Source: Massalongia carnosa
Lineage: Eukaryota
Assembly (NCBI GenBank): GCA_965645245.1
Contig: OZ287080.1
Coordinates: forward strand, 1,550,001-1,614,000
Direction: 5' to 3'
DNA: 64,000 nucleotides
Shown here: positions 8,337 through 62,800 of the stretch, piece after piece
Layout of the letters: each line of letters begins with the position of its first letter
Numbering within the stretch: the stretch's first letter is position 1
Translations under genes and position numbers: made by a program
Notes under the pieces: generated by a model
Seen by the model: only the letters and a program-made list of their open reading frames with translations
The model's database searches: none
Told to the model about the DNA's origin: nothing

Positions 8337-9774
8337 ACGTAATTCACCGCTATTCGGAACACCCGCTTATTCGGAACTAACAAATTTGATACCAACCTTC
8401 GTAATTTTTTATCACCGCCGCATCCGCAAAATTTCTAGCACATGTACTCGGGAATTGATCAGCAGGTTCTAGTGAATATATATAGCTAGGCATAAGCTTG
8501 TAGAGCTACATTTTACGAGTGTTACAGATGACACGACCGCGCGAGCTAACCCGAACCTCTAAAACTTCCTACTTCTACCCCTTTCCTACCATTTCCACAT
8601 CACCTTGTACCAACCTAGTGATATTTTTCTTTCTTGGTATACCTTTTCCTTTATTTTGAGCAGTTTTTTTAAACCCTATGTCACCCTCAACTGTCTCCTT
8701 AAAAATATAAGGTGTAATCTGAATAAGATCGTGAAAAGCGTTTTGAAAGATAGAATCGTCTCGTTTCTTATTTTTAAGTAAAGATCAAGATGTTACAAGA
8801 TCAGGCACGTATATTAGGTCGGGTTCAGGTTCAAATCGCATTAGGTCTTTAGATACCTGAAAAAATAGTCGATCGTTCTGTTTTTCTTTCCTTACCTGTG
8901 ATCTAGCCTCTTTCTCCTTTTTCTTATTTTCAGCTGGTTGTCTTCTTTTCTCCACATCTTCTAAACTCAATACGCGATCCCCTTGAACATCATATTGAGT
9001 GCCCGTACGTTGAGCTCGTTGTTTTTTTTTGTGTATTGGCTGCTAAAAGCTCCGTATTAGTACGATCCAAGACAATACGATCAGTCATAGCAAGCCCAGC
9101 TGCTTTAAGGGTTTTTTGTAGAAGAGTAAGCTTAGAGGAATCAAGAGTCTGATGGCGAAATAGTATATAAACTCCTCAACCTTTGAGACTTGTTCTATGT
9201 TTCCTGATATTGGTGATATTTGGCCTGAAAGATAACGCGTTTGAATAAGAGTACTAGCGCTAGGTAGAGTGTCATCGTCCGTTTAAGGCTTGCTGATATT
9301 TTGTCAAATGGCGGAGTATAGTAGCTCTAGTTAACCTAGCTCTGAAGAGATCCCTCCTCCTCGGGCGTTAACCTCTGCTTTGAAGTAACGTACGATACCT
9401 GGTCCTGGCGACCGTTTATTCTGTGATACAATGTTGTTTTCGGTACCGCATGAAGTCAAGCAGCTTGCGTAATAGACAACGACCCTTCTGCCTTCTCATA
9501 GACCTTAACTGCCTATTTTAAACGTTCTCTAACCTCGTCTTTCAAGGTAGTACGCAATCCCGATTTTGTAACTCGAAACTGCCGGGAAGAAGCCATTTCA
9601 GCGGTGTAATTTATCGATAATCAGCTATTATGATAATTATAATACCCTTTACCTTATTAAATCAGTTTTAGGGTTTTTCTTCAATAAGTTGTAGAAGAGA
9701 TAATGGTTGAAAGTAAGTTTCGTGGTTTTGTTAGTTCCGAATAAGCGGGTGTTCCGAATACAGGTGAATTACGT
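8337..9774 (-). mobile_element. Non-autonomous, internally deleted Fot1/pogo (Tc1/mariner superfamily) DNA transposon
   Basis: ~48-bp TIRs starting ACGTAATTCACC with 2 mismatches; TA on both sides (8335-8336, 9775-9776). Minus-strand transposase remnant has an HTH (SITQAA*LHAVPKTTLYHRINGR, QRLTPEEE) joined directly to the C-terminal coiled coil; no DDE domain seen; in-frame stops. Confidence 0.9.
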
Positions 9775-10143
9775 TAGCTAAATACCAGAGGCAGAGACTC
9801 CGTGGTGTTTGATCAACGACGACCTTTCCTTTCCCTATACACTCATGATACTCTTATCATAGTACTCGACGAAGCTTCTCGCGGATTCTTGGGAGGTGAC
9901 GCGACGTAGCAGATACTTTGTAACTCGGCTTAGCGCTTAATCTCCACAGAGGTACGTATGATGCACTCCATTTTAGCGATTGCTGCCAAGGCATTATTCG
10001 TGGTCTTCCGAGTTCGAATGACTTATCTAACGTTCGCAACAGGCCCGAATGTTAGGCAGCTTGATGACAAACTTCAAGTCCACCGTCCACGAAATCGAAC
10101 TCTGTGCCTCTTACACATCGCTGGTAGGAAATCTGTATTCAAG

Positions 10144-11179: not shown

Positions 11180-11939
11180 TGGGATCGGGCGGATGTGTGC
11201 TAGGTGTGTGTTGCGTGAACGCCGGTTGGCCATCTACCTTTCCCTTCGGCGCCTTTAATATAGTCTAGTTTTTCCTAGTATTTTGCGAAGCGCGGTGTTG
11301 ATGAATTACCCAGTCATTGACTTGGAACGTGTAATAGGTAGGTATTTGGATCGCTTGGGGGGTGGGGGGTGTTCTACGTTCATATAGGTATCTGGGCAGC
11401 GTCGTCAGCACGGCCGGGGGGGGTTTTGCATAACGTTACATACCTTCGTTTTCTGTGCTTTCATATCTCCTCCCAAGGAATCGAGGGGGGATTTTTTTTA
11501 AGGTATTCTTTTTCTTCATGTTATTATCTAAAGTTCTGGAAACGATCAGCTTGCCACCTTCTCCACTCTTATGATACAATGGAAAAGCTTGATAGTAAAC
11601 GATCTTGCACTCGAGAGCAATGCAGTTAAATATCATTTCCTAAACAGTGCTCCTGATATTCTGAGCTCTTTTCACCGCTGAATATCAGAACTCGATACAG
11701 ATAAGACTCGAGACGGACGAGCCTACACCATCGGTCCTCCTCCTTCTACACCATCGGTCCTCACCACGGAGACGCCAAAGGCCTCACCGTGGGGCGACCG
11801 TCAAACATAGATTTGCTCCTATCTCTTCGCATCAAAACAATGCTAATTTAACGCGTTCACACGCGTCGCAGACGTACGTACGGAAGAGGATACGAAGGCC
11901 AACCGCCGGGGGGTAGAATGCGCGCGTCCCTGCACCATG

Positions 11940-12659
11940 CTTCTAAGGGTTCAAGTCCCTTCATGCAGTCATCAGCTGGAAGAAGATGTGGACCAAAGGA
12001 GCCGCATCATCCCCCACCCGGGCACAGTCGACACGCGTTCTAGCTCCTGAGAGTTCAAGTCTCCCCATGCAGTCATCAGCTGGGATCAACAGAACGCGTA
12101 AAGGCACCGGGGCGAATGCTGTCACCTCAAGAAAACTCCATCTCGGAGCAGAATAACAATATCCCATTTAATAGGCCCGGCCTGTTAAATAAAATCGAGG
12201 AAAACAAAGTCACAAAACACATAGTCATCAATCACACGTTGTACAAAGCACACAGTCACAAAGCACACAGTCACAAACATACAGTCACAAACACACAGTC
12301 ACAAAACACACAGTCACAAAAAACACAGTCACAAACCAATAACACGTCCCTGTGAAGGGGGTTCTGCGGGGGCTCGTTAAGACAGATCTGCACCCCGTTA
12401 ATATCGGAGTACATATTTTTAGAGGTTCAAGTCCTTTCTAGCAGTCATCAGCTGAAAATAATGTATTTTGACACGGGCATGGTGTGGATTTGACACGGGT
12501 AGACCTCGATGGATCACAAAACGAATGAAAAGAGTTCAGCGGAACTTCGTTAATATTGTTCTCGAAGACCTCGTTAATAAGATTTTCATAGACCTCGTTA
12601 ACAACGTTCGGTCATACTCTTAAAGGTTCAAGTCCTTTCATGCAGTCATCGGCTGAGAG
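11940..12659 (+). ncRNA. Four dispersed copies of a ~43-nt structured RNA motif (P1 stem, 5-bp stem with TTCAAGT loop, 16-nt conserved bulge)
   Basis: Copies at 11940-11982, 12045-12085, 12415-12459 and 12617-12659; loop invariant, bulge nearly invariant, stems differ in sequence but stay paired. Confidence 0.65.
12205..12335 (+). repeat. Minisatellite (ACACAGTCACAAA-like, 13-16-bp units) inside the retroelement
   Basis: About 7-8 imperfect tandem copies of CACAGTCACAAA. Confidence 0.85.
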
Positions 12660-31055: not shown

Positions 31056-32312
31056 TTAAGCAGCCTTAGCAGCCTTAGTAAGTGCAATCTCAGTTCCAAA
31101 AACACGATCCCAGAATCGGCTGGTAACACCGAATCCATTCTGGAAATCGTCGTAATGATGTAGAAGGTGATACCTCTTCAGGTCCCGGTAGTAGGAAGGG
31201 ACTCTTCAATGGCTGTCAGTTGGACGGCAAGGAGAGAAGTTTGAAGATGCTTACGATTTATGATGGAGGAAATAATGGGTGAGGTCGTAGCAGATGTAGC
31301 CGAAAATTCCTCCACAGAAAACGGCCGTTGCGGCGAACCAGTCCCAATAGAATACTGTGTGCGCAAGCTTGTAGAACGGCGTTGCAAGCGCAATGAATAG
31401 CGTAGGAGGCATGACGAGACGCAATTTGTCCATGGGAAGGTAGTGATGTATGCCGTGAAGAAGGAAATGCGCCGTAATACCCACACGATTATCTGGTAAA
31501 TATCTGATGAGGTATTTAGCAATGCACTATTACTGGCAGCATCGCATGACGAACTTATCCACATGAAAGAGACCTCTGTGCATCCCGTATTCCACCAGTG
31601 TCCACAACCCGAGTCCAGTAAGCCAATAGAGCACGAATTGAAAGACCGAAGGTAAACCATTGCATGCGAGGAAGGATCCGTAGGCAACAGGCGGTAACCA
31701 GACGATGGGTATCACGTACCATGCGGTCTTGCTGAGCGGCTCGAGGAAATTTCCGAACAAAGGCGCTGACTCGCCATCCTTGTGTTTGGCTTGATGGACT
31801 TGCTCCAAGTAGAAATCCTTGCTAAAGCCGCCATTCCATACTTGCATAAGTAAAGGCTTGTTAAGATCGAGGAATTTATGTTTATCGGTCTTCACCGAGA
31901 GGTCCGCAGCCGATGACATTCCTGTTTGTTTATAGGCTGCAACTTCCCTAGTCACCCCCATGTCTTTTACTTCGCGTATACCTTTATCTTTTGAAGCGAG
32001 TTGGGGAATGCTTTCTGGTAGTTCACTTTGCCTTGCGCTTTTCAGGAGGGGTTCAGTAACCACAAACCCAATCAGACGTTCTTCGAGTATTTCATTGGCC
32101 GCTTCTGAGTGCGAGTGGGATATTTCGTCGCCCATAATCACCTCCACGTCTTTCCCCCCATATGCTAGTATCAAGTCTCCGCCTCCAGGATGCGCATCAA
32201 GGAAGGATGTAACATCATAGACCTTGGTCCCGATCGTCACGTAGCAGGAAGCCGTGGTATTCCGTGAGGCCACCTCGCATGCAGGAATATTAGGAAGTGT
32301 TCGGCCAGGCAT
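31056..32312 (-). CDS. SCS7: Sphingolipid fatty-acid alpha-hydroxylase (cytochrome b5 plus FA hydroxylase)
   Basis: HPGG b5 motif; His boxes HRGLFH, HGIHH, HYFLHH, HLLHH; GFGVTSRFWDRVFGT; 2 introns. Confidence 0.92.
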
Positions 32313-33162
32313 GGTTACAAGGTAAAAGTTAATCGGGATGGCCTTGATGATAAGGTAGTTATGTATGAAAAGATGGGGCTGTGCCCAAAAGGAAATTGTA
32401 TAAATAGTCAAATAAATTGAGGCTGAGACCACAAAACAAGGCAGAAAATGTCTGGAGTAAGCGCGGGTGGCGGCGGATGCAGGGAAAAGCCCCTAATTTA
32501 ACCTCACTTCTACTTCAGGAGAGATCCAAAACAATCCTCAACGTCGCTCAGATATGTAAGTTGTAGTTTTCAGAAGGCAGGCTAGCGTTCACGTTTCGAT
32601 ACAAGTTGGCAACTCCTTTTACTTGGCCTATGTCCCTCTTCCACGGTCGGGTATGATGTCTCCTCCACTTATTTGGACAATGATGGCATGCCTCTTTTGA
32701 TGATTATCTCCCTCACTCTCGTCTCGTATGCTGTTGTATCTAGCAAGTTTGGAGCGAGTCTTCCTTTCGAATGATCTAGATCGCGGTTGGTATTTTCGTT
32801 AATCTATTTACATGACATCTACGGAGTAAATGCCGCCCTTCTTGCAAATTTTAATTGTAGTGGGCATAGACGAATGAATCATCTATGGCTTGGGCCGGCC
32901 AAAAGAGTCAATAACTCCAAAGATATTCTTAGAGAAATGCCGTAGGTCCTCTCTAGCAACTTTTCCATGACAGACACTGATTAATCCTTGCTGTTTGCAC
33001 TAATTTCCTTGACAGAAGTGAAATATATTGAGAGATTTCCAGTTTGTAGTTTACATGATATTTACGTGTCACTTAATATTTTCTTTGTGGAAAGGTATCA
33101 AGGTATATTACTTCTTTGATATTCGTACAAGTATTAAATTACATCACTTATAATTTATCAAA

Positions 33163-33460
33163 GGGCGACATGGCGTAGTTGGTTAGAGCCTTCATTGGCT
33201 TTATTCAGTTTGCATTATGTCTATAGAATCCCCCTTTAAACGATTAGTAACTTGCTTATGGGTTTCCCTATTCAGCGTTACTTAGGTTTAGCGGCTCTCC
33301 TCGAGGAAGCGCAGCGCCCGAAGCTTTGAGTTGGATGGGGGTTTGCTAGTCAAATGAAAATCCTGAGAGAGAGGTTTCGTAGAATTCTCTTCACAAAGAG
33401 TCTGAGCTTTTGCCATCTTAACCTCCTAGGTTTGAGACCCGGTGAGCGCAGTCTTTTTTT
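33163..33460 (+). other. tRNA-like / Pol III-type locus (pseudo-tRNA with long insert, or tRNA-derived SINE)
   Basis: A-box-like TGGCGTAGTTGGTTAG near the 5' end, B-box-like GGTTTGAGACCC at about 33429, tRNA-Gly-like 3' half (TTGCCATC...GCGCA) followed by a T7 run; acceptor stem pairs poorly. Confidence 0.35.
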
Positions 33461-35699
33461 CATTATTTTTAAAATTTAAATAAAGAAATTTACTTACGCG
33501 CATTTTTTTCAATCTCGGACACTGAGAATTTACCACCACTCTTTAGCACTTTTTCAAGATTCATACTTTACTTTCTCTAATCATCATTATACTTTGGTAT
33601 CAACACCTGCCAGTCGGAGATGTCCACGTCCGGGGAGGAAAATACAATGAGAATGCGATGGGGCAGGACTGGTTTCGTCATGACGTATCTGACCCCTTAG
33701 GCTTTCAGACTCCGTGCGCCTACAGAACTACTACTACCAGTGATATTGGCTAGATTACCGGGGTGAAGGATTGAGAAGGGGTGGTTTCTGAGTCACATAG
33801 GGAACTGTTACCCGCTTCCAGATCCCCCTCCCACCCAACACCGGTCGATAATCTCAGACTCGCAGGCACGATTCAGGAGAAAGCGCATATATCTCTCATT
33901 TCGATAAGGGTTGATGAGTATGTATGAGATGAAATCTTTGCGTGAGCGGCACTAATGGAGAAGCAAAGCGAAGAGTTTATACGTTGTATTTTTCTCCTCC
34001 CCCTTTTCATATCGGGTCAGCCAGCACACCCGCTCGACTATTCTGTTTCCTTTTCTTTCCTTTTCGTCCGCTCACGTTTGCAAACCGGCAGAACCCCAGC
34101 TCTCCCCAACTATGTACATATACATACACCCTTCCTTCCCCTCCCTCCCCTCCCTTTTCCGGACACACTCTCGACATAATAAAATACAATAAAATAACAA
34201 ATCTTTAAGAAACATGGTAATTTTTTCTTTATCTATCTATCCTTCCAACAAATCGAGGGGAATATACTCAACCCAACATCATCATTTTTATTCATTATTT
34301 ACCTATGTACTTACCTACCTACCTACCTACATACCTACATACAGAGCACGCTTCACGAACACTTCCCTCCGCAAAAGGGAAAGACAATGAATGAACGAAC
34401 GAATGAATGAAAAATGAGCAGTTGCGTAAAGGAATTCACGGAGAAATCATCATCTACCTATCTATCTAGTTATTTATCTACGGGGGAACCGTCAGGGGGG
34501 TGGGGGTGTGTGGCCTGCGGAAACAAAATATGGATGGGGCTATTGTGCATCGTATTTCTTCCCACGCACAAAAACAGACAATTGTGCGGCGCGGGTTCAA
34601 TGAACGTTGTTGGTGGCAAGGATTTGGGAGGGGGGGGCGAAGCTCTTCGATACTCGTAAAATACCTAGTGTGGAGCAGATGGATCCAGCCAGATAGAACT
34701 CGCTTGAAATGCTTTTCCCCCCCGGAACCGAAACTGATGGATGGATGAATAAAGGCAAGCAAGGAATGAAAGGAAAGGAGAGGAAGGGAGAAACAACGAG
34801 ACACGAATGGTCGTCATTCGTTTAGGCTTGGTGGGTGGTGGTGGATGGGAGGTTGGAGGAGAGCTAAATACCTTAAGGGCGGTTGGGGGTATTCGGACAT
34901 GATCTTGAGATGGTCTCAAGATCCCGGACATGTCTTCGCTAAACTAGATACACCGGAAGGTTCCCGGTTTGTATGCTTTTTTGAGCGCTTTCGTGATTGA
35001 GATGATTCAACATTGTCCTGCACGTGTAAGATAGCTTAAAATTCGACTTGTGTTTGATGAGAAATATCTGCAGATCATATAAAGTCTGATATTATTTGAG
35101 AAATACGATAGTCTTGAAAAGAATATATCTCAGTGAACATTCATATTGATATGAATAGTGCTTTCCATTAAAGAGCACCTGAAAATGATTTAAAGATCGT
35201 CTCAGTTTTGACAAGATCTCAAGACCTTCAAGATCGTATTCAGGATAAAACGATCAGAAAACAATCCTATAAAAGAGATATCATGTCCATGCAACCTCGT
35301 TACAGCTGAGTTGTATTCGAGTTCACATGCTGTATTCGCCCAAATGATGATTAGGGAAACAAGTTATTGATTTAGTGACAGCTTCTAATTTACAGCTCTA
35401 TGAATGCTATCATCCTCATGCCATGTTTCCCGTTCTCGTTGCTGTCTCGCACGATCTAGTCTTGAATGGCTTCATCGATTCATTCCCGTACCTCCTCTCA
35501 CAACATGTATGAAACCGATGAAACAAGGCAGATAAGAGACGTGCCTTGAGGACCTGCAGAATAAGACTGTTAGCTTGAATTGCAATATGCGCAGAGAACA
35601 CAACGTATCAAGCGACCATGTAGAAGAAAGGGCAGCCTGACGCAATAAATAAATTAGTCTCAGTTCTTTCATACAAGTTTGAATGCGATAGATCAATCA

Positions 35700-36417
35700 C
35701 CGAATTTATGATGGGGAGTGTCGGCAAAACTCAGCTGTTCTGACCTGACAAACCCTTCTCGCCTGAGAAGATTCCAGAGAAGATTTCTAAAACGGCCTCC
35801 TGGGAAACGTCCTTCTCGGAGACGTCCTTCTTGGAGACGTCCTTCTCGGAAATGGCCTTCTCGGAAACGGCCTTCTCCAAGAGAGTCTGCTTTGGCATGA
35901 CTCTAGGTTCTCTATCGTCTGCTAGCTGTAGTTGCATCATCATTGTCAGCAGAATGGGAAGAACTCTCACAAAAATTCAGCAGCATTGAGTATGCTCAAA
36001 CATTGCTTGACATGTTATTCTTCCACCCGCAATTTAGCTTTGATGGCATTCGACACTTTGCTTGATAATTTATCGTAAGTGACGTGAGGACTAATCCTCA
36101 TATATTGCTGAGCTTGATCAAACCGAGCATGAAAGAGTAGCCTCAACGCTCGATCAAGTATTTCAACGTCTTAAGTCCTCGACAGTGTAGATTCTTGTCG
36201 GTGACAAGCTCAACAAGTGTCGCAAGTTCATTTCATCTTGATTGTATTGCTCCTGCTCGATTGAAGTTAGTTTGCTGTAATTTTGTCTCAACTTCTTGAT
36301 CGTTGTCGTCTCCAAAACAATATCTTTCAAGGCAGTTATCTCATCTCCGTCTTCATCACTTTGAAAAGCATCACTATCATCCGATGTCACCTCGAATTCT
36401 TCGTCATCTTGCAGCAT
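35700..36417 (-). CDS. Transposon accessory ORF (acidic N-terminus, EKDVS-type repeats), probably disrupted
   Basis: ORFs 36163-36417 and 35731-35970 directly downstream of the transposase, inside the TIRs. Confidence 0.35.
35803..35880. repeat. 15-bp tandem repeat, about 5 copies (GARACGTCCTTCTCG-like)
   Basis: Seen directly; encodes EKAVS/EKAIS/EKDVS on the minus strand. Confidence 0.85.
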
Positions 36418-39400
36418 TGTATCCGCGAATCTGTGTACAATGTAACAAATCTATATCTGATTCTTTGTTACTGTTTGAACTTATTGTCGACACGACGACA
36501 TGTGAGGATACTGGCTCATTGAGCGTACGATTAACAGGAACAGTTTAGATCTTATCTGGATCAACAAAGAATAACGGGATCACTCTATCCGTGTCTGTCA
36601 GTTGAAAGATGCTCAATTTAGGACCTCGTCTTTATAGGAAGCGGTCTTTAGCAGTCGAATCCAAAGGAACACTCGCTGAATATTCTCAAATGATAGACAG
36701 TGAGTATAAATTTGTCGAAGCTGAGCACATGTGCCAGAGCGGAGTCGAAGAAAGTCGCCAATATGCAATGAGAAACGTTTGCCGGTTGACCTGACAGTAA
36801 AGGAGCATTGTTCATACCAGTATAAAGGCTTGTTTCCCCATTGAACGCCATTAAGGCCATACCCGGTCATAGCAGTTTGCAGCAGTTGCCTAAATCGGAG
36901 CTCTGTGGAGTTGATTATTCTGATAGGAAGACCTTGATTTGGTGCATAGGAAAGTTTGAGCTTTCCCCGCACTGCAGGTTTTAAATGTGAGGGAGATTCT
37001 AATAGACAGTCATTTGTCGACTCCTGATCGTCTGTTTGTGGGCGATCCCCGTGAAATAATAGACTTTCAAGGAGAGCCGGGCAGTTCCGCTTCAAACGAA
37101 TCATTTGTAGAATGATCTCCGGATCGGTATGACGAAATGAGCCATTCAAAAGAGCGACGACAGTGAAGATGATAGCGGCTTTCACTAAAAGCTGTCGCTC
37201 TGGCTTTCGATGATTTGTTAACAATACGGCTTGCTTAAAAAAGCGATGTCTGTCTCCTCCAAAGAGAACATTAACGTTCCACAGAACACCATACTCCTGC
37301 ATGACTCTTTCGAAATGCATACCGATATGAAAGTTTGGCAGCTTATCGGCCTCGCCATTCCGAGTAGTCACTGATGCAGAAAGTCTCATGTCGGGATCTG
37401 CCACAAGATTACCAATGGACGCCTCTTCAAATGGAGTGTCTATATCACCAATAAGGGACTTTATGGATGTTTCAGAAATCGATGCTCGTCTAAAACTGAA
37501 AGATAACTCCTCAGTGACAGACTCACTTTTCTCGTTATCTTTCTTCTTTTCTTGTCGTTTTGGATTTTGTGCTGCATTCATCAGACCTAGATAACATCGT
37601 CGAGCATTGACGATTTGACTGTGAAATTCTTGACGATCTTTGAGGGATAATTCGAAAGACGAGATTAACGTGTTACTCCATGCGAGTTTGCCAAAGCAAA
37701 ACACTATCAAATCTTCATCTGAAGCGCAATGGCGACGTTCTTGAGGAAACTGAACTTTCAATCCATTTCGAAAAGGCTGTCGTACATGACGATTTCTTAA
37801 CCAACAGCGAAGAAGTAGAGGTATTACGACTGAGGCACGAGCGCATTCACTCATACTCCATGGGGCCATATGAATAGCCGGAGTCTCTATTCGGCCCTAG
37901 CCAGGTGGAAACGGAAAACAGTGCAAGGCAGCTGTAAACTCTTCAGCAGCTCATTTCGTGAGTATTTTCGTGTAAAGAAAAGGGTACAATCTTCGTACTA
38001 GGCCGTAATACTCGCTATGAGCCGGATCCGGTGGACAACTCATGATAAGATCAAGCGCCGGGGTTAATGTCTGAAGCGCAGAAGATTCGGGTTTGAGCCC
38101 ATTTCGTGTAAGATATGCCAGTCTCTTTGTCTTTCCTTTTATTGCTAGGCTTTTTTTTCGTATAGCCAACACCTCATGATGATAACGACTATGAAGTAGA
38201 ATATCCCGCTGTAAATCTCCTCGATTATGGAGGCCCGCATCACAAAAGCGACAACAATAGTTGGCACGTGGCCCAAGAAACCCTCCGGAGGCTTGCTGCT
38301 GCTTCATATCACCAAGATATGCTAGAATCGGGGCCCAAGCCGCTTATTTCTGTCCATTTATTTCAAGAATGCAATCACGATCCATGTTTCCCAAACTGGT
38401 ATGAAGACAGTTCATCACATCGTTAAACTCGGATCCGTGCGGGTCAAGAGCAATGGTGTAAGCATTAAAACTCTTTTGACGTTCCGAAGCGGGCAAGCCT
38501 GCTGGCATGGCATAGACACCAGTGATGGAACGATACATGTTTCGATATAACCCGAAATCGTCGATAAAAATGACAAGGGGACATGACTGAACTCCTTTAA
38601 TTAGCTATGAGATTAGGTACTCTCGACCAAAGACTTCTAATTCTAATTCCGCTCGAATCGATGATGAAAGATTGATTGATCTAAGATCTCCTCGCGTGAC
38701 GTTGAATATCTGACGAATTAAGACAGGCGTTGTAGACCGTACCTGATCATTCCTACAAATTGCAACATCGAAACGGCGAGCTAGAACATGCTCGGATAAG
38801 ACCTCTTGATCCGCGTCTTCTATCAAAAGCAACTGATCTTCGGGCCAGTCAAACGTGACCGGAACTGAATATTCGTTGACGTTCTTTCTACTATCAAAGG
38901 ACGAATCCTGACAAGAGTTTGACCTAGGGTCAAAGATCGCGATCTTTGATCACGTCCAAAAAATATGACCTGTCCGCAGTGACTGTCATGAATAATCCCA
39001 CATTTATCATTGCCACAGCGATACTGCACAATGTCAGAGGGGAAAATAGGGGATGAATCGGGAAATCTCGCAAAATTAGTGGAACATGTACGAATAGAAG
39101 AACCCCAACTGTTTGAATGCCAGTATTCCGAAGGATTATCAACGATCTCTGTCATACCGATATGAATGTTTCGTTGAGTTCTGGCTGAAAGTAAGATATT
39201 GATAATAATTCGAGCATCGAAGTAATAGACGTTGGCTTGAGCCGGTCTTGGTGTCCGGTGGGTTGTTTTTCTCGTCGTACTGGTACCGCTGCCTTCTGAA
39301 TGGATGGAAGGGGAAGGCGCTTACGGCAACAGGATTGCAAAGTTGATAGTCGCTTTGGCAAATTTCGCACTTCATGAGTGTCTAGCAATTGCAAAACTTC

Positions 39401-39862
39401 GAGTAGGACATCATAGGTGCGTCGCTTGATGCCTTCTTTATCACACCAGAGACCGAGAGCCAGGCAGAAATCCGATATTTCTCCTCGTACTGGGCGGGAG
39501 GGCACCCGGATCTCATCATCAATCGTGCTTTCAGGAGCAGAAGGGCCAAACTCGTTGAAAGACTCACCGGTGTCTATGCTATCTATATCAAATTCCGTGA
39601 GTTGATTGGATGGCAATGTCATGATAGCATTTGAAGAAATTAAGCTGACAGCAAAGGCCGATGTATCAGCGATTGAAGCAGGCCGAGTATGAACTTTTTG
39701 AAACTCTTCATCAGTTTCCCGCTCATAATCACTATTTTGATTGAATGCCGTCTCTATATCGGCTGGCAAATTGCCTTGAACGTGTTGTTCAGGAACTTGG
39801 TTTGACGATGGTTGGATTTTATTGAGATTCTCTATGGTTCGCTTCTTATGCGCCATTGTCAT
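36410..39862 (-). pseudogene. Inactivated large transposase, CACTA/EnSpm-Plavaka-like (CMC-type RNase H fold), with BAH-like C-terminal region
   Basis: Reassembled frame: EYWHSNSWGSSIR, IFPSDIV, IFIDDFGLYRNMYRSITGVY, LAYLGDMKQQ, CRFC, PDPAHSEYYG, LPNFHIGMH, HRFFK, IGDFL; at least 3 frameshifts and 4 in-frame stops. Confidence 0.75.
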
Positions 39863-40417
39863 TCGTTCTGAACTCTGGATCTGCTTTTGCTTCTCATGAA
39901 TATGTACAGAATTTTGTTGCTATGAAGAACCGGCTTGCGTAGACCCGTGGCCAGGGAAGTCTATCGGTTGACTTATGAAAGGCAGTGAGTTGACCCGTGG
40001 GACACTGCTCTGAACAGTGGATGCTGAAACAATCAATGTCTTTTCCACAAGAGGAGGATCCTGAAAACTGAAATCATCAAGGTCGGGTTTATTCAGACTG
40101 ATATGAAGCAGGCTTACTGCTGGAACGGTTGAAGCAGTGTCGATGATTTATGCTTTCTTCTCTTTCTCAAAACATGACGTTCGTCGAGCATCATAGTCTC
40201 CGTCGCATCATCCTGATATTCGCGACGAGGCATCGTGTCTCATAACTGAATTTAGTTCTGTGCGCAGGTGAGATATTCTCATGAAGAATCACTTGTGCGT
40301 TGATATTTTAGTTCTTAGGGCTTTAGCACACTATTTCAGAACATTAGCATTCGTCTTTACTGCTTCGCGCTTTCTTTCGATTGCACTATCATTAGTGCTG
40401 GTATCAAAAATACAATC

Positions 40418-41338
40418 ATGAACGAATCATCGTCAAATGAAGAGGTCCTTAAACCTTTAACGCAAGCCGAAACACAATCAGGATCAACAGCGGCAGAAAT
40501 ATCTACCAAAAAGACGCGGAGAAGACAGGCCATTACCTTCGAATGGAAACTAATAGTCATGCGAATGAAGGCTTCTTTGCGGCCATTTGCGCTTCGTTAT
40601 GACAAGTTGAACGCAGATCAAATAGCGCATATCGTTCGAAATACAATAAGAGAAGATGTGGATGAGGAAGATATTTATTTCAGGAAGGGAGTCACCAAGG
40701 TGCAATCCAACGTTTCAACGTGGAAACATCGCTCTCTAGCGTGTATGAAAGTATGTAGCTTGCTATTAGCGTTTATACTCGACTTCTGATTGTTTTTAGG
40801 ACTACATACAGTCTGCTATCATGAGAGACAACCTAAGGCTGCTGGAATCCGAACATGACTCGAGCAGGCTATTCAAAGCCTTTGCACAGCAATATGATCA
40901 TCATGATGCTGAGACAGTCTTTCCATGGGCAGCCAAAACTTTGATGTTCCACGAGTCTTCAAAGAAGGGTGCAATGCCTCGAGGGCCCTATTGGATTAAA
41001 GGTAAGTGACAAGGCATACGAGAACTGATGGAATTTACATATTGATATGAAAAAAGTATATTTTTTAAATTTAGCGGTCAAGACGAAATTGTACTTAGAC
41101 GCCCCCAGAGCCGAAGGCACAGATCGAACCTCTCTTCTAGAGAATTTTACGATACATTTCCTCAAATGGCAAAATATCAAAACATTAAGCCATATCATTT
41201 AAAATTGAAACCAGCTCGGGCAAAATGCCTGAGCAAGGGATCGGCGAATAATCTAGAGATGGAGGAATTTGGCGCTATCATGGATGAAATGGAGGTCACC
41301 GAGGCCGAGGACGAAGATGAGGACGGGCTTAGTTCGTG
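40418..41338 (+). CDS. Divergently transcribed transposon accessory gene of unknown function, intron-containing, possibly disrupted
   Basis: MNESSSNEEV... exon, GTATGT..TAG intron (about 40751-40799), further exons ending in acidic EAEDEDEDGLSS*. Confidence 0.5.
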
Positions 41339-42020
41339 AATGTTTGCTTTTTTGTACTGGTATGAAGAAAAGATGTTTTGCTTAGAGTTGTTGATGCAGC
41401 CACATTTAGCCTCAGGTTTGTTCTAGATAGGTGATAGCTTGACCGAAGAAAATGTTTTATTTGCACTCGACTCTAACAAAACTTGAGATCACGTCGACCA
41501 GATATTACACTGTTTAAAGCATTCCTGATTCAGAAGAATCTTTGAGCTAATCCAATGAAAATCTTCAAACCATGATCGTCTTGAGATTCTGTTGTTAAAA
41601 ACATCCATTCCATGTTATAAGATATTTTACTTATGATAAAGTTATGAGATTGTCTTTAAAACAGAATATCTGAACACTGTTCACAGTTTGCTTTCTTGAC
41701 TGACGTAATCACTTAATAGATAGACTATGACAAGAACATTCTAGTGGATAATAGCTTGAGACCATCTCAAGACCATGTCCGAATACCCCCAACCGCCCTT
41801 AAGGTACCTATATAATTTTGCGAGCTAGCTTGCGCTTAGATGGTAAGTGACGGGTACATAGGTGCTTATATTTTACATTCACATGATCTCGTATGTAAGG
41901 AATCCATCCAGCCGTGCGTGCCAGCCTGTCGTCTCTTCATCAGCATATCTAGTAATGCATGCCACGCTCCACCCACGCCCCTTGCGAGACCCACCCTTCA
42001 GCACGTAGACTGACCCCGAT

Positions 42021-43266
42021 TCAAGTCCCCTCGTCTCTATCCTTCCGCCCAATTCGCTCCTCATAAGCCTCCCAGGCTCTATTTCGATACCTTTCAGCCT
42101 CCGCTCTCCGATCCTTAGCCCCCAGCACTCCTCTCCCAACAATGATCACATCCGCCCCGTCCCCGCCCACCACATCCCTTGGCGACCGCCAATTCTGCCC
42201 TAATCCATCGCCCCTCTTCCCTCCCTCCTCGCCATCGGGGGGCAGGTTGACTCCTGGGGTAAAAGTCAGGAAGCCGTCTTTGGGCGTTGAGTTCAGCGAT
42301 CGCTGCGCTACGAAGCCCATCACAAATTCCGGGTGTGCGCGCGCGACGGAGACACAGGTGGATGTGTACGCGGGCGTTAGTAGATTGCCTTCGCTGCTCA
42401 TTTCTGCGAGGAGCAGTAAACCCCGACTGTGCGGGGGGGGGCCTAGTTCCTGCAACGCCTGTTCTCGATCCTGGGCGCTGGAATCGCCAGAGGAGAGTGA
42501 TCGTGTCCAAAGGATCGGGGGCGAGGGTTCGAAGGTCTGCGAGATGGTGGTGGTGGCGGTAACGACGCTACCTTTACGGGCGAAAGCATCTGGAGGCCCG
42601 TAGTCGTCGTCGTCGCCGTCGTTGGCCTCATTGTTGATGGTACCACCGTTCTCGCCTGCCTCGGTAGCTTCTTCGCCCGAAGAACAGCTGTCCAGGGAGG
42701 CGCGTGGAGAGCCAGTAGATATCTCGGTGAAAACGGATTGGTTTAGGGAGATTAGAGTTGCAGTGGCGGCGGAATGGAGGGCGGACACTATGGAAGGGCC
42801 CGGGAAAAGGTGGGCGTTCGTAATGTGTGCCCAGGTTGCTATGGCGAGAGGGCCGCGTGTGTACTGGGATTGGACTGTGCCTATGGGATTGAGAAATATT
42901 TTCGATTAGCCACGTGCTCGAGATGAGTGGAAATGTAGTTTGGCGCGTACTTCCTATATCGCCGAATTTCCTGTCTTCAAAGAGCAGAAAGGCCTTCCTC
43001 CTTGAAATTTCCTTGAGCCCCCTAATTGTTCGCTCCGAGAAGTCATCGATCATGTCCACGTGGGTTTTCAGAACGCATATATAGTCACCGACTTCCTCAG
43101 CAAGACGCAGGAGGGCGGAGGTGGTGTGCACATCAGCAGAAACACAAAGATTGGACCGTTTAATCGAGATCAGGTGGAGAAGATAACTTGTGAGTGGTGC
43201 TATACTGGGTCGCTCAGCGCGCACAGAGAAAGAGAGTGACAAGATTGCATGTGATTTTGCGGTCAT
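42021..43266 (-). CDS. URA3: Orotidine-5'-phosphate decarboxylase, 2 exons
   Basis: SNLCVSADV, LKTHVD, FEDRKFGDIG, RGLLLLAEMSSEG, TPGV, GDGLGQ, DVIIVGRG; one intron about 42882-42951. Confidence 0.95.
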
Positions 43267-44300
43267 GTTGGAACAACACCAACAACACGATGCGGAAGCC
43301 TTAGTTAACTAGCGCCAGAAGTCAAGACGACAAGTATGCCAGAGTATACAGAGTAGCTATCATTCAATCTCAAACGTTCACTTCTTTGCCCATCAAGACG
43401 AATAGTACTTTACGATAATGAAGAGAGAACAGTAGGGAGATATTCTGCATCTGTAAGGGGACTGAATTTGAGATATTCTATAGAGTCGAGAGTGAATTAT
43501 ACATAGAGGCTGGTTAGATATACGAAGGTGAGACATCTAAGGAGTACTTAGAGGTACTTGATAGTTATATACTCCGTATTTAAGGTAGTACCTTTGCGGG
43601 TGGAGGCTAATGTGGCTAACTGATCGGATGGGGCACGCTTTGCCGAATGTAGTAACCCAGAGTGCTTCGGTAAGACCGGATTGGGATGGCAAGGATACAC
43701 GATACTAGCGCTAATATCAGGCATGGATTAGCAAGAAAGAAACCTAAGCACAGGTCGCACCGCTTTCCCCAATTCTAGATACTGGGAATACTTGGGTACC
43801 TTAGGGACCTGTACATTTGCCTGTGTACCTCGGTAGTTACACAGACGGTGGAGAACGTCTCCGAATGAAGAAATATCGGTGTCTTTACCACCGATCGGGC
43901 CGTGATAATCCGTACAGATGTAAGCTATTTATCTCATCTCATCTTATCTTATCTTAGACGCTATATTCTTCGCAAGGCGGATTGGGAACCCGCGGTTTAG
44001 CAACAAAAAACATCTTAAAAGTGCCCAATGAGCGTGTTGAATCTCAAATGATTGAACCTCGTGATGACGACTTCTACTAATGTTGACGAACAGCACACAC
44101 GAAATGATTAACGCTGTTGACATGTGTTTCGCCAACATTAGCATCAATAAAATCCAACCTTTACTTATGTGGATTTTGAACCCATCGGCATCCCTCCCTT
44201 CTTGTACTGGCTATGCCGTGCTGGACTTAGCGGCCGGTGGCTGATAGCAGACTTAGCGAAGAAAGCATGATAGGTGTAGAAACATAACGGTAGCCATAAG

Positions 44301-47300
44301 ATGACAGTCACCGCCATTAGACCAAAAACCGAACTCTCCAAAGTCGACAGCACGAGGGAACGGGAGTTGTACCGTTATTATCAACCATCGGATTCAAAAG
44401 TCGAGAGATCTACTCAAGGTCGGCGTAACCTTGCAGCGCTTGCTGATAACACCCTGAGCGTCGATGCTGCATCCTCTCCGGATACTACATTAACAGCTTT
44501 AGCACAGCTATGTGCACTTCGACTGAATGCCTCACGGGCAATGGTCAGGTATGTCTCGAGCTCAGATGGGTGTACATGAGTACTGACTTGATTTAGCGTG
44601 ATTGGAAAGGAAATCCAGTATTTTATTGCCGAGTCGACCAAATCCTTGAATCTTATAGACAATCAAAAGTCAGAGGTGGAAGGGGATGGATTATGGATTG
44701 GCTGTACAGAGGTCCAAAAAGAAGGGAGACTCTGTGAGGTACGTCCTGAGGGCAGCGTCGCAGAAATGAATGTTTGCTCACCTCGATAGAAAACGATCGA
44801 GCTCGCCCCTGTGCCAGGGAGATTCCCATGCTTTACTGTCACGGATCTCACTATGGACAGCCGCTTTAATCAGCTACCGTTTGTCACAGGTCCTCCTTTC
44901 TTTAAGTTTTATGCTGGCACGCCCTTGACTACCAAAAAGGGAATCAATATTGGTAGCCTATTCATTGTGGACACTGTCGTAAGGCCGGTGTTGAACACAG
45001 ACCAGCAAGAGTTTCTCGGATCCGTTGCTCAGATCGTCATGGGCCATATGGAGGTGTCTAGAGAAGCCCAAGAACGAAGAAAGGTGATGAGAATGTCAAG
45101 AGGGTTGAACGCGTTTGTGGAAGGCAAAGATAGATTTGATGCCGAAGAACTCTTATCTACAAAGCCAATCTCTGGCTACAGTGAAGATGAACTATCTACT
45201 TCAACCACACGTAGAACATCAAACGTATCTGGTAGAGAAAACGCCATTGTAGAAAAACCTTCAAGTCAAGAAGAGGCTGAACCTCATACCACATCCGCTA
45301 GCTCCCCTGCAGCTAGCTTGATTGATCCAAAGAGCGAGTTTTCCGCCAATGTACCTGGCTTGAAACAAGTAAGAGACCCAACTACGAAGACAAAGCCTCC
45401 GGCATACCGAGATTCTTCCCAAAGTGGATCGGAAGCTGGGACATACAAAGAAAATAAGGATACTGGCTATCAGTCGACTTTTGTACGAGCAGCCAAACTC
45501 CTTCGCCAGTCCCTGGATCTTCATTCTGGAGGGGTTGTTTTTTTTGATACTACAACTGGGTTTCGCAGCCACGATGACGATTTGCCTACTAGCCCGGTCA
45601 ACCAAGACGGTACCGTAAGAAGAGAATTTACGGCTGACAATGACAATCAATCTCCAATCCTACAGCAACCCCCAATTGTCTTGGTTGAGACAGGGCTAAG
45701 ACGTGACAGTTTCGGCGGTCGATTGGAGAAAGTCCAAAAGCTGGCCGAGATCATAAGCTTCTCTACGAGTGAAGAAACTCTATATTTGCCAAATCTAGGC
45801 CAGCGACTGAACTCTTTTAGCCAATTGGGCGAAGATTCACTCCAATATCTTCTGCATAAATATCCCCGCGGGAAGCTCTGGTCATTCGATGAGGACGGAA
45901 GTTTCTCATCATCCGAGGAAGAGGTCGCCCAAAACAAGGGAAATTTAGCAACTAACAGACAGTCTTCAACTCAGAGAAAACTGTTGGTTGCACTGATGCT
46001 CCAAGGACATTTCCCTAGTGGTGAGCACGTAAAATCTATTGCCGTGGACACAGAGTACTACTTATATACTCAATAGTTCGTCAATTACTATTTGCACCAT
46101 TATGGGATTCGGGAGCATCACGATGGTTTTCTGGCTGTTTCGTCTTCAGTCCTTCAAGTGAACAGATGTTTTCCCCCGAGGCTGAGCTTAACTTTGTTAC
46201 AGCGTTTAACAACAGTGTCATGGCCGAAGGTAAAGAGAATTCCCTACCTTTATGAATGATTCCTCATACTGAGTCCATTCTGGCAGTTTCGAGGCTAGCT
46301 TCTGTAGCTGCAGACCGCCAGAAAGGTGATTTTATTGGGTCTATTTCCCATGAACTCAGGTCACCATTGCATGGCATACTTGCCAGCGCAGAGTTTCTAT
46401 CGGAAACCGAGTCAGATGCGTTCCAAGACAGCCTGGTTAACACCATTCTAAGCTGCGGGCGTACGCTCCTCGATACGATTGACCATATATTAGACTTTAG
46501 TAAGATAAACTCATTTGAAAGGAACTGGCGAAACGCCCAAAAACCCGGATTCAGACCCCGAGGAACGGGAACTATCGGCCAATCCGTGAGTAAAGAGGCA
46601 CTTCCATTGATGAATATTTTCGCAATCACCAATGTAGCAGCCGTGGCTGAAGAGGTGATCGAGGGTGTCTATGCAGGCCAGATCTACCAGAACATCAGCT
46701 CTTCCGACATGACAAATCCTACCCCCGGATTCAGAAACAGGCGTCAAGAAAGTAGATCTAGTTCTGGGTTTGCATCGATAATGAGCGGACCCTATCCCGA
46801 AGGAATTGCGTTAAACGGAATCGAGGTTATCTTGGATATTGCCCCTGAGGACTTTACCTTCACCACGCAGCCCGGTGCGCTTCGGCGTATTATCATGAAT
46901 CTGTTCGGCAATGCTTTGAAGTACACCACAAAAGGTACAATCACGGTCCAACTTGCGCTCTGTGATATAGACACCAGCGTTGAAATGAATCCCGCGGCCA
47001 GAGTGCTCGAAATAAAGATTAAAGACACCGGCAAAGGTATCTCCAGCGAATATCTCCGGACCAAGCTTTACACCCCCTTCTGCCAGGAAGATACACTCGC
47101 AAGTGGGACCGGACTAGGTCTCTCCCTTGTTCGGTCCATCGTTAACATGCTTGGAGGTTCCATCGCTATTCGCAGTCAAGTAGGAGCAGGCACAGAAGTC
47201 ACGATCTGCCTTCCATTATTGCGAGCATCCGAAAAAGATTCCCAAGCTTCAACCCCCAGCAGCGCAGAGACCTTCGAGGCGTCACATGCTGACTCAATCA

Positions 47301-48725
47301 ATGCCTTACGTGCGGACTATTCTGATAAAACTGTAGCTCTTTATGGGATGGCTGAGGGAGCTGAGCTAGCCCGTGTAATCAAGCGGTACATCTATGACTG
47401 GTTTGGTCTTAAAATCCTTTCGTCGTGGTCAAACGCACACCCTCCAGATGTAATTATGGTTGATGAGCAGGCCCTCCCAGCCTTATCGAAAAAGGAAACT
47501 ATCGCCACTTCAATTGTCGTGATATGCAGTAACTCTTCAAACTATGGTCAGCGGCCACCTTCTGTTGGGGGTAGCTTTGCCGTAGAGTATCTGTCAAAGC
47601 CGTTTGGACCATATAAGCTCGCCAAAGCATTGCGACTCTGCCTAGAAAATGCCAGAGACATTGATTCGAGGTTAAGATCTCACTTTATAACCGAAAATAT
47701 TCTAGGAGAATCAGCTTTCGGCACAGTGGTGTCAGGCTTCCAGGCTCTTGCTCTGAAACCTGAAACTGGAGTTGCAATCCTTTCAACGAAGCCAGAGGGA
47801 ATTGTAACAGCAACCGGGTCTATCAATGCACAGATGGTGGTTGGTGTATCTCCGACCTTACCCAAGAAGGAAGGATTCATCAATAATGCTGAAGAATATC
47901 CTTTTCCGGGCTCGGACGCTAATCTAGCAAAGGCCTCTGATCAAAACCAAGACAAGTTTACCAGCTATGACTCAATGCATCCAAAAACAATCCATAAAGT
48001 CACAGAGTCACCAGAGAAACCTCCCTTCGCCTCCTCTTCTACCATTACAAACAAAGACAAACTTACGGCGGATACTGCCCAGGATTCACGTCGAGAGAGT
48101 ATCACTCCCATAGCAGCGCCATTTCCCCAAATAGAGAAACGTCCTCCAAGACTATTACTAGTGGACGACAACAGTATCAACCTTCGACTATTAGAAACTT
48201 ACATGCGGAAACGAAAGCACAAGTTCGTGGACTCGGCGGAAAATGGTCAATTGGCTGTCCAAGCGGCGGAGCGGCAGCTGGAAGGCTATGATATTATATT
48301 CATGGGTGAGTCACAAACCTGCTTTTCACTTTATCACTACTTGCTCGCTATCTACCTACTCCTTGTTCCTGTCTAACCTATCAATCTTACCCACAGACAT
48401 GAGCATGCCCGTCATGAACGGCTTCGAAGCGACACGCGCGATCCGCGAAATCGAGCGTGACCGTGGCCGAAAACGTGGAGGTGCCACTACAGTTCCCGAT
48501 CATGGCGAGAGAGCATCCCTATCATCAGCAACAAACGGATCACCGTTGTCGTCTTCGCCTCCCGCGCTGATCATTGCGCTCACAGGGCTAGCGTCGAGTA
48601 GGGACCAGAGCGAGGCATTCGCAAGCGGAATTGATCTTTTCTTAACGAAGCCAGTTTCGTTCAAGGAGGTGGGGAGGCTTTTGGATAATTGGGAGTTGCA
48701 TAGGGGCCGGGAGGAGAGCGCTTGA
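44301..48725 (+). CDS. Hybrid sensor histidine kinase (GAF, HisKA, HATPase, receiver), multi-exon
   Basis: GAF FYAGTPL; H-box ISHELRSPLHGI; N-box IMNLFGNALKYT; DTGKGIS; GTGLGLS; receiver LLVDDN...IFM|DMSMPVMNGFEATR...KP. Confidence 0.92.
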
Positions 48726-52928: not shown

Positions 52929-53092
52929 CATGCATTGCATGATTGTCATAGTTAAGGCTGAAAAGCTTAGGAAGCCTGGTCACCCTTCAAATTCCTTCGT
53001 ACTCACGGGGCATGCATTGCATGATTGTCATAGTTAAGGCTGAAAAGCTTAGGAAGCCTGGTCACCCTTCAAATTCCTTCGTACTCACGGGG
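52929..53092. repeat. Perfect 82-bp tandem duplication
   Basis: 52929-53010 is identical to 53011-53092; each unit starts with CAT and another CAT follows. Confidence 0.95.
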
Positions 53093-61115: not shown

Positions 61116-62800
61116 TCACAAATCAAAATCCACAGTGACGTTCCTGCTCGTTATCCATGGGTTACCCGCACGTTTAGGCACAGTCCACTCCTCAACCTGC
61201 GGGCCGTTTCCGGAGTCAAACATGATGTACACATTTCCGTCCCCTGTCACTCTATCGCTCATAGCTGCTAGAGAGAGATATGTCGTGTTCGTCTTCTGAA
61301 GAGGCTTGATCTCGGACGTGTGATCTACGAAGCCCGTCGTGCAATTCCACGCGCTCAAAACTAGAGAGCTGCGGTCCGGAACTGCGAAAATAATTAGGTT
61401 GGTCAAGGGTGTATTGTGCGTGCACTCCGGCAATGTGTTAGTTTTATACAAAGGCTGGTTGTCTTGCGCAACGACTGCGAGAGGGGATCGCGGTTCGACG
61501 GTTAGGCCGGTTGCTAATTTACGGTGTTAGAGGACTAAAGGTGACCATAGGGATCGAGACTGCGCTAGGTATTTACCAGATTCAGAGGTCAGGGAAACGA
61601 CGTTCTTGGGATCAAGATCAGTGTCACTGATTGTGTATTCATGCTGCCGCAAATTCTTGCCGTCATCAACTGTGTATAGCATGAGGTGCTTTCCGCTTCG
61701 ATAGCTCACGAGGGACATAGCGAACGTCGACCCTTTAGGATGTGAGAATCCGAAATTATTAGCAACCCACGGCTTGCTTGTCGTGCTGTTGCTGGTATAG
61801 CGTCCTTGAGTAAGGCCATCGACGAAATTTTCTTCCTGGAACAAAACAACCAGTTCTTGTGATACGTTTTGAATGTTCTGATTCCAGTAGGCAGTGAGAA
61901 AAGTAGAATTACCACCGGTATAGAGTCCGCTGAAATTATCATCTTCCCAGGCTTGGGAATCATTAGAGGGAGCCTGACGCTCGAAGAGCTCATCGTTAGT
62001 TGACATATAGTACACATTCTTGGCCTATGGATTGTTTATTAGCCAATAGCAGAGAATAAGAGATATGCGATACACACCAATGAGTAATTATAGCTAGCAT
62101 GGGGGTATCCGGCCGCTGCTGCGATAGGTGTACCGGGCTTGACAGCATTGCTGATCGCATTAACCTTCCATGCAGCACCGAAAGCAGTGCTGTTATCCCA
62201 AGCAGATTCTCGGATCTTGTCGCTGTTGTCTTGGTAATAGAGTCTTTTGTGCAATGTGCCATTGAGATCAGTCCATTGCATGGCTGCCAGGCCTGTATTC
62301 GCGTAATGTACTCGAGTCGTTGTTGGTGCTTGAGGAGCTGTTGAAGATGGAATATTTGTGGGAACAGTAGCATTCTGTTTTCTATTACGCACAGCGATAG
62401 TTCCACCGATACCACCACCTACTACACCTGCTATTAGGAGGACGAGTACCACGGGTAACAGTACAAAGAACGTCTTGCTCCTCAGGCCAAAGATTCTGCG
62501 CTCCTCTGTAGGACGTGATAATTCCGATTCCGATTCCACGTCATGTGCATCGACAACGACTGCTTGCTTGCCCACATCGTTGAAGCTGATGATCTTTTCC
62601 GATTGCGAGTCATATGCATCGACAACGACTGCTTGTTTGCCAACATCGTTGTAGCTGATGATCTTTTCATCCTTGGGATCTTGACCCACGATAGGAGCAG
62701 CCTTGCCATCATTCTCCAGGCAACAGTTGTAGTTTACCTCCAGAGTACTATATTTTGTGTTTCCTGGTGCCGGCACCAACAATGGCATCGAGCCTGCCAT
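61116..62800 (-). CDS. Type II membrane-anchored fungal fucose-specific-lectin-like beta-propeller protein, 3 exons
   Basis: RRIFGLR + TM helix + GGGIGG; blades such as TGLAAMQW..RLYYQDNSDKIRESAW..GTPIAA; introns about 62077-62025 and 61576-61514. Confidence 0.7.

Follow-up and report, generated by a model that had tools for sequence, protein, structure and literature searches.

Can a transposase of the CACTA type be combined with TTAA target sites, and where does a transposon end when its outermost bases form a palindrome? Both questions are raised by a 6938-bp element copy at positions 34869-41806 of a 64,000-nucleotide stretch of Massalongia carnosa DNA (assembly GCA_965645245.1, contig OZ287080.1, positions 1,550,001-1,614,000; hereafter the window, whose numbering is used throughout). 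An interpretation based on the letters of this DNA without database searches (the sequence-only reading) had described the element as a CACTA/Plavaka-like transposon with GGG termini, a TTAA target-site duplication and a preference for a 12-bp palindromic target, and had suggested that this combination may define an undescribed or poorly described superfamily or lineage. Our results indicated that the TTAA is part of the inverted repeat and that the element ends TACC...GGTA. We consider it likely that the locus is a degraded copy of a multicopy cut-and-paste transposon of a lichen-associated ascomycete, which belongs to the CACTA/Mirage/Chapaev/Transib ('CMCT') clade, has Plavaka as its nearest named family, encodes a transposase with a RAG1/Transib core and has TACC...GGTA ends.

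Terminal repeats and other copies of the element

The element is bounded by two inverted repeat arms of 52 nt each (34869-34920, TACCTTAAGGGCGG..., and 41755-41806, ...CCGCCCTTAAGGTA) with 98% complementarity, the left arm reading TACCTTAAGGGCGGTTGGGGGTATTCGG... and the right arm being its reverse complement. This pair is the longest inverted repeat of the 64-kb window. When counted from GGGCGG at 34877, the arms are 44 nt long, TTAA lies directly outside GGGCGG on either side, and TACC or GGTA follows beyond TTAA. The 44-nt repeats adjoined by TTAA that the sequence-only reading had reported are thus present, as the inner part of longer arms, and the 12-nt palindrome that it had reconstructed (TTAA with the outer TACC/GGTA) does form if the element is removed at GGG. 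Within the window, the 25 nt that follow TTAA are confined to these two places; they had no match in 100 shuffles, and no further copy of the element was found within these 64 kb. TA, TTAA, CTTAAG or CCTTAAGG is each formally possible as the duplication when one copy is considered, and because the junction is palindromic, a single copy cannot identify which palindrome was duplicated.

We compared contigs of four public runs from three studies, which cover one lichen metagenome and two coded organisms, with the window over 33400-43300. Summed contig depth across the element was ~20-80x that of the flanks in the four runs, and the element is multicopy. Contigs of other copies were alike up to 41806, through TTAAGGTA, and then diverged. 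Loose ends of other copies begin behind 41806 in at least two contigs in X1 and at least three in X5, and the continuations behind this position differ from one another (agreement 0.62). Contigs containing the unique flanks stopped within the repeats, at 34896-34922 on the left (three runs) and at 41779-41859 on the right; these break points were rejected as exact repeat boundaries, being unreliable for simplified contigs. An exact 20-nt piece of the repeat gave no match to the metagenome contigs. The contigs of the four runs contained no joint across the element of the kind that an empty site of this insertion would give, and small internal joints with low side length were not used.

Ends of related families and the TA duplication

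Scanning of the metagenome with the protein alignment yielded 65 loci. Five related families end TAC(C/T), with TACCATGCC, TACCTTAG, TACCGT and TACTTTAAGGGCGG among the ends read, and TTAA is missing at the junction in four of the five. Outside TACC, none of these five families shows a direct repeat. Loci L003 and L020 hold two copies with 98.8% identity, whose likeness starts exactly at TACCATGCC (TACCATGCCGCC) and whose flanks are unlike; L020 has a right end that matches its left one, ...GGCGGCATGGTA, at a distance of 4919 bp. L007 ends TACCTTAG(T/C)GG... with ~27/33 matches between its repeats and L023 ends TACCGT... with ~26/35 (both counted by eye), and L026 ends TACCTTA.... The repeat of L052 is TACTTTAAGGGCGGAAGGGG, and its right end TACTTTAAGGGCGGAAGGGGGG is clearly homologous to TACCTTAAGGGCGGTTGGGGG of the window element. 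Because other copies are alike through GGTA, and related families have TACC but mostly lack TTAA, the TTAA forms part of the inverted repeat, and TACC...GGTA are the ends of the element.

Further comparison of L052 with L027, which are 97% identical, revealed a 423-bp insertion in L052 with TA on each side, where L027 has a single TA. A TA duplication was thus observed directly, as filled versus empty site, for this 423-bp relative, a miniature inverted-repeat transposable element (MITE). The MITE ends are (T/C)ATCGGCAA..., i.e., of the CATCGGCAA type, and CATCGGCAA ends also flank an element in L061 that carries a transposase of the family studied, and recur at further places. In addition, every end seen in four families has TA directly before a terminus that starts with C. 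By analogy with the related MITE, a TA duplication is most likely for the window family too, and the element probably has CC...GG termini flanked by a 2-bp TA duplication. With TA placed outside, the window element begins with C, like its named relatives.

Among the other loci, no convincing pair of terminal repeats was recognized in L019, L005, L022, L012, L004, L035, L010 or L001, most of these contigs being too short. The repeat pairs of L031 and L049 were not cleanly interpretable; L049 has TACTATAAC / TGCTATAGC with TA at one side only. In L007, a TAAGAC hexamer stands beside both ends at different offsets, which is probably due to chance. Near the left end of the related element in L010 (172-418) there is a perfect inverted duplication with arms of ~104 nt and a spacer of 39 nt, seen through L009, which may be an assembly artefact.

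The transposase family and its position in the CMCT clade

Of 7999 candidates scored against the read-through protein of the window copy (P0001), 45 were homologues at E<=1e-3, and the best of them had 56% identity over 98% of the query. Full-length relatives have ~1150-1200 amino acids (aa), and the named homologues come from ascomycetes (Pezizomycotina), i.e., Chaenotheca, Pleopsidium, Trichoderma, Morchella, Xylaria, Thermomyces, Zymoseptoria and Achaetomium. These proteins carry no precomputed Pfam domain, and the ascomycete records are filed as 'hypothetical protein'. At E<=1e-3, a profile built from 23 members matched 3852 representative clusters, of which 987 reached E<=1e-30. Comparison with L043 showed that, at L004:1785-5350, a transposase gene of this family contains an insertion of 3.5 kb, which has a 3-bp TTC duplication.

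The window protein itself had no match in Pfam even at E<=10. We also scanned 52 relatives: 23 from alignment A1, another 19 representatives and the translations of 10 loci. Plavaka (PF18759) was the only recurring match, found in 6 of the 52 and always below the cut-off, with a best score of 25.5 bits (L023) against a gathering score of 26.3 bits. These matches span profile positions ~187-318, the stretch that holds GDM..QQ, CxxC and D..H.E. Plavaka clusters were also among the nearest in a language-model atlas, which we take as a lead only. Neither Transposase_21 nor a piggyBac-type domain was matched by the window protein or the scanned relatives. A quick unrooted tree, which contains many short rows or rows degraded by repeat-induced point mutation (RIP), placed TACC-ended elements on several separate branches, a weak result.

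Invariant, or else at least 90% conserved, among 93 aligned sequences are the D of F.D.FG, the D of GDM, CxxC, the H of D..H.E, HxxxH and the E of GE.KH (D42, D126, C145xxC148, H223, H429xxxH433 and E453 in model numbering). The catalytic Glu is that of GE.KH, not that of DPAHSE. The Cys and His residues are putative zinc ligands. The signature of the CMCT clade, D...D...C(2)C...H...H(3)H...E with two Cys and three His, as described in the available portions of PMC12730594, is present in the window transposase family.

We modelled the catalytic core with AlphaFold2 on L019:3976-5523 (516 aa, 93-row alignment). The model had a predicted local distance difference test score (pLDDT) of 92.2 and a predicted template modelling score (pTM) of 0.89. 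In it the first D lies on a strand and the second just past one, and a large helical insertion precedes the helix that bears the E. Foldseek returned 44 matches in the Protein Data Bank (PDB) at E<=1e-3; among the rows listed to rank 44, all are RAG1 or amphioxus RAG1-like, the best (RAG1) having an E-value of 9.7e-7 and a TM score of ~0.48, and HzTransib ranks 45. A wide structural search gave a Z-score of 17.0 for RAG1 (376 residues aligned, root-mean-square deviation 4.3), followed by RAG1-like (15.9), P element (11.7), HzTransib (9.8) and Hermes (7.3). No piggyBac entry occurred among the matches listed in either search, and the sequence profile had no match to PDB sequences at E<=10. The catalytic core is thus predicted to have a RAG1/Transib architecture. 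Because the family carries the clade signature and its structural matches are led by RAG1, we assign the enzyme to the DDE transposases of the CMCT clade, with Plavaka as the nearest named family and the element probably on the Plavaka side. These data agree with the CMC/Plavaka-like transposase proposed by the sequence-only reading, which had also called for a structure prediction.

The transposase gene of the window copy is degraded

In tblastn searches with the full-length relatives P0002, P0003 and P0004, the transposase gene was recovered as four successive pieces differing in frame (39724-39254, 39251-38871, 38895-36616 and 36616-36434; Table 1). One minus-strand frame, 36613-38949, carries FIDDFGLYRNMYRS, GDMKQQQ, CRFC and DPAHSE, so that the motifs previously noted in the translation were found again. 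The three frame changes coincide with places where contigs of other copies have one base more, and the family consensus is open at all three sites. At position 37898, every contig covering it, in all four runs, has C, which restores Trp. Moreover, the catalytic Glu of GE.KH is replaced by Gly in the window copy (GGDRH versus GEDKH). Owing to the three 1-base deletions, the four stops and this Gly, the window copy is dead and unable to produce an active enzyme. All four stops are C>T or G>A changes. RIP is not claimed as the cause of decay, as the indices TpA/ApT (0.61) and (CpA+TpG)/(ApC+GpT) (1.37) do not indicate it.

In each of the four runs, contigs of other copies part from the window copy immediately upstream of 36434, where the transposase frame nears its end; the window copy, or a subfamily, differs structurally over 34921-36433. 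A second gene was sought in 34921-36415 and 39950-41754, for which tblastx gave no match among the 65 related loci, and the open reading frames (ORFs) 40319-40789 and 40800-41009 had no match in a comparison restricted to Pfam.

Table 1 Features of the element copy at 34869-41806 of the window
Feature	Position	Strand	Basis
Left TA, probably one copy of a 2-bp target-site duplication (alternatively, the element's own first two bases)	34869..34870		All ends seen in four families have TA and then a terminus starting with C; TA duplication in related MITE
Left terminal inverted repeat, CCTTAAGGGCGGTTGGGGG..., including TTAA at 34873-34876	34871..34920	+	52-nt arms at 98%; unique in window
Right terminal inverted repeat	41755..41804	-	Arm match; other copies diverge behind 41806
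Right TA, probably the other copy of the duplication	41805..41806		Sequence, other copies and related families
Left subterminal TCTCAAGA/TCTTGAGA motifs at 34903, 34914 and 35217	34903..35224		Right-hand partners at 41579 and 41765
Transposase pseudogene	36416..39946	-	tblastn with full-length relatives P0002, P0003, P0004
FIDDFG, bearing the first catalytic Asp (strand beta-1 in the model)	38551..38568	-	Nearly invariant D in alignment
GDMKQQ, second catalytic Asp	38296..38313	-	D invariant in 93 sequences
CRFC, C(2)C motif, putatively zinc-binding	38242..38253	-	Both C invariant in 93 sequences
DPAHSE, conserved D..H.E; H probably the third conserved His of the clade	38011..38028	-	Alignment and clade signature (available portions of PMC12730594)
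NFHIGMH, H(3)H motif	37315..37335	-	Consensus of relatives
GGDRH (GEDKH in relatives)	37246..37260	-	Comparison with consensus and P0003
Four in-frame stops: TAG 38605-38607, TAA 38344-38346, TGA 37951-37953, TAG 37897-37899	37897..38607	-	Frame translation
Three 1-base deletions (frameshifts) at ~39253, ~38891 and ~36614	36614..39253	-	tblastn frame changes

Alternative explanations

The reading with GGGCGG...CCGCCC termini, a TTAA duplication and the preferred target TACCTTAAGGTA fits the window copy when this is taken singly. In contrast, the other copies share their sequence beyond GGG and TTAA as far as GGTA at 41806, the homologous repeats of related families have TACC rather than TTAA, and a target of 12 bp would occur too rarely for a family of such depth relative to its flanks; piggyBac is missing both from the Pfam matches and from the structural matches listed. 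We therefore regard this reading as very improbable. CCTTAA lies within the inverted repeat, with TA as the likely duplication, an outcome that the sequence-only reading had itself named as refuting it, and the proposed palindromic target preference falls together with the TTAA. Because the TTAA duplication, the GGG termini and the palindromic target all fail, the suggestion of an undescribed superfamily that joins a CMC enzyme to TTAA is unsupported, the combination being absent here. A different account keeps the TACC...GGTA ends and treats TA as transposon sequence, with no target-site duplication or a traceless one. A fixed terminus would place TA at all TACC-type ends examined just as a duplication does, nothing duplicated is visible outside TACC, and DDE elements without duplication are on record (Spy; cited in PMC12730594), but a member of the same protein family shows the TA duplication against an empty site, and the named relatives, as far as they are described in the available text of that article, all make duplications of 2-5 bp and start with C at the cleaved end. 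We consider this account unlikely.

The element could also be a member of ESTA, a group of EnSpm-like elements of rust fungi, instead of a lineage on the Plavaka side. ESTA elements duplicate TA, and HHpred connected their transposases with RAG1 (PMC12730594, in part), which recalls the TA of the related MITE and the RAG1 likeness found here. However, the ESTA consensus sequences in the available part of the PMC12730594 supplement start with CACCAC, CACGGC or CACACC, not with CC or TACC, ESTA was reported there from Pucciniales, and Plavaka is the only Pfam signal in the family studied here. Membership in ESTA is accordingly unlikely.

Several points weigh against the interpretation that we prefer, a Plavaka-side CMCT element with CC...GG termini between TA duplications. 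Among the loose ends listed, only right-end ones were found, and no empty site was seen for the window insertion or for any TACC-type element. The ends of L007, L023, L026 and L052 came from scans requiring a CC or TAC start, so that this start was partly imposed; the flanking TA in the CC-start scan, the repeat lengths, the L003/L020 boundary and the repeat found by BLAST in L020 were not imposed by the end scans. Moreover, CC...GG ends misfit the CA...TG of most named relatives (PMC12730594, in part), and no Pfam match reaches its cut-off.

Comparison with known transposons

In the available portions of PMC12730594, elements of the CMCT clade are described as making 2-5 bp duplications and having 5'-CA..TG-3' termini 'in most cases', a rule that the CC..GG (or TACC..GGTA) ends of the window element do not follow. 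PlavakaA has 2-bp duplications with TGT..ACA ends, and PlavakaB has 2-3-bp duplications with CATCA..TGATG ends (PMC12730594, same portions). The element resembles Plavaka as the only Pfam family matched, in the 2-bp duplication expected and in its fungal hosts, and the CATCGGCAA ends in one side branch of the protein family (L061 and the L052 MITE) resemble the CATCA(G)CAAA starts of PlavakaB in the part of the supplement of that article available. In contrast, the window element has (TA)CC...GG(TA) instead of either type of Plavaka end, no CC or TACC start occurs among Plavaka consensus sequences 4-57 of the 71 in the supplement, and the Plavaka families in the portions of PMC12730594 available come almost all from mushrooms, whereas the homologues found here come from Pezizomycotina. 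With ESTA the element shares the CMCT clade, a RAG1-like enzyme and the probable TA duplication; ESTA is set apart by its description, with CACCAC termini and rust-fungus hosts (PMC12730594, in part).

The likeness to RAG1/Transib lies in the architecture of the core and in a DDE enzyme with C(2)C and H(3)H, and the difference in a sequence identity of ~10% without a sequence-level PDB match. Duplications of 5 bp and CAC termini characterize Transib and RAG. EnSpm/CACTA elements share the clade signature and subterminal repeat motifs with the window element, which differs in lacking CACTA ends, a 3-bp duplication and a Transposase_21 match. The only likeness to piggyBac and Kolobok is the TTAA beside GGG in the window copy; this TTAA lies inside the inverted repeat and does not constitute a duplication. 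The structural searches led by RAG1, with the P element far behind at a Z-score of 11.7, further set the family apart from Kolobok. The P element is a relative of Kolobok. No description of TACC- or CC-type ends was found in the literature on Plavaka, Lanisha and fungal CACTA or TA-target elements, a coverage that does not extend to Repbase Reports and subscription journals.

Genomic context and other repeats

The insertion is intergenic, with an ORF for a cytochrome-b5 domain (31530-32492, minus strand) on one side and orotidine-5'-phosphate decarboxylase, as two ORF pieces (42021-43308, minus strand), on the other; a histidine kinase gene lies further out (46256-48376). The G+C content is 42.7% in the element and 46.9% in the flanks. 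Five of the eight matches to the TCTCAAGA motif in the window fall within the outer ~350 bp of the element, against 3.6 expected across the whole 64 kb.

A second inverted repeat of 50 nt with 96% identity, TAACGTAATTCACCGCTATTCGGAAC..., lies at 8335-8384 and 9727-9776 with 1342 nt between its arms. It probably marks a 1.4-kb non-autonomous element, which may have a TA duplication if it ends ACGTAATT, and the repeat holds TATTCGGAA twice, close to TATTCGGAC in the repeat of the element studied. The window also contains tandem duplications at 52929-53092 (82 nt x2, 100%) and 62528-62665 (69 nt x2, 90%), and a 44-nt unit ending ...GCAGTCATCAGCTG(G/A) in four dispersed copies within 720 bp (11936-12656). 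Among the related loci, L058:7522-7681 differs from L057 (98% identical) by an insertion of ~160 bp with TACGCTGCGGAA(T/C)AGGGAAGGG repeats and an 8-bp duplication, ATTAAGAT; this is an unrelated MITE, hAT-like by the length of its duplication.

Proposed mechanism and implications

By homology with RAG1/Transib, an intact enzyme of this family would bind the repeats together with the subterminal TCTCAAGA motifs and nick at the terminal C. The element would then be released via a hairpin on the flanking DNA, and its 3' ends may be joined to TA with a 2-bp stagger. The window copy would be mobile only with enzyme supplied by other copies.

Our results remove a false lead, in that there is no CMC-type enzyme with piggyBac-like TTAA targeting at this locus. 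For annotation, a fungal transposase family of several thousand representative clusters but without a Pfam model gains TACC...GGTA ends, a probable TA duplication and a confident RAG1-like model. We tentatively suggest, as a possibility that we do not favour outright, that the TACC-ended elements form a separate unnamed CMCT lineage of Pezizomycotina including lichen fungi, with the rank of ESTA or Plavaka, which would be distinguished by termini other than CA (5'-CC following TA), integration strictly at TA and a transposase of ~1150-1200 aa covered by no Pfam model. Transib proper was reported missing from fungi in the available text of PMC5751038. The family described here adds a Pezizomycotina branch to the clade that gave rise to RAG1.

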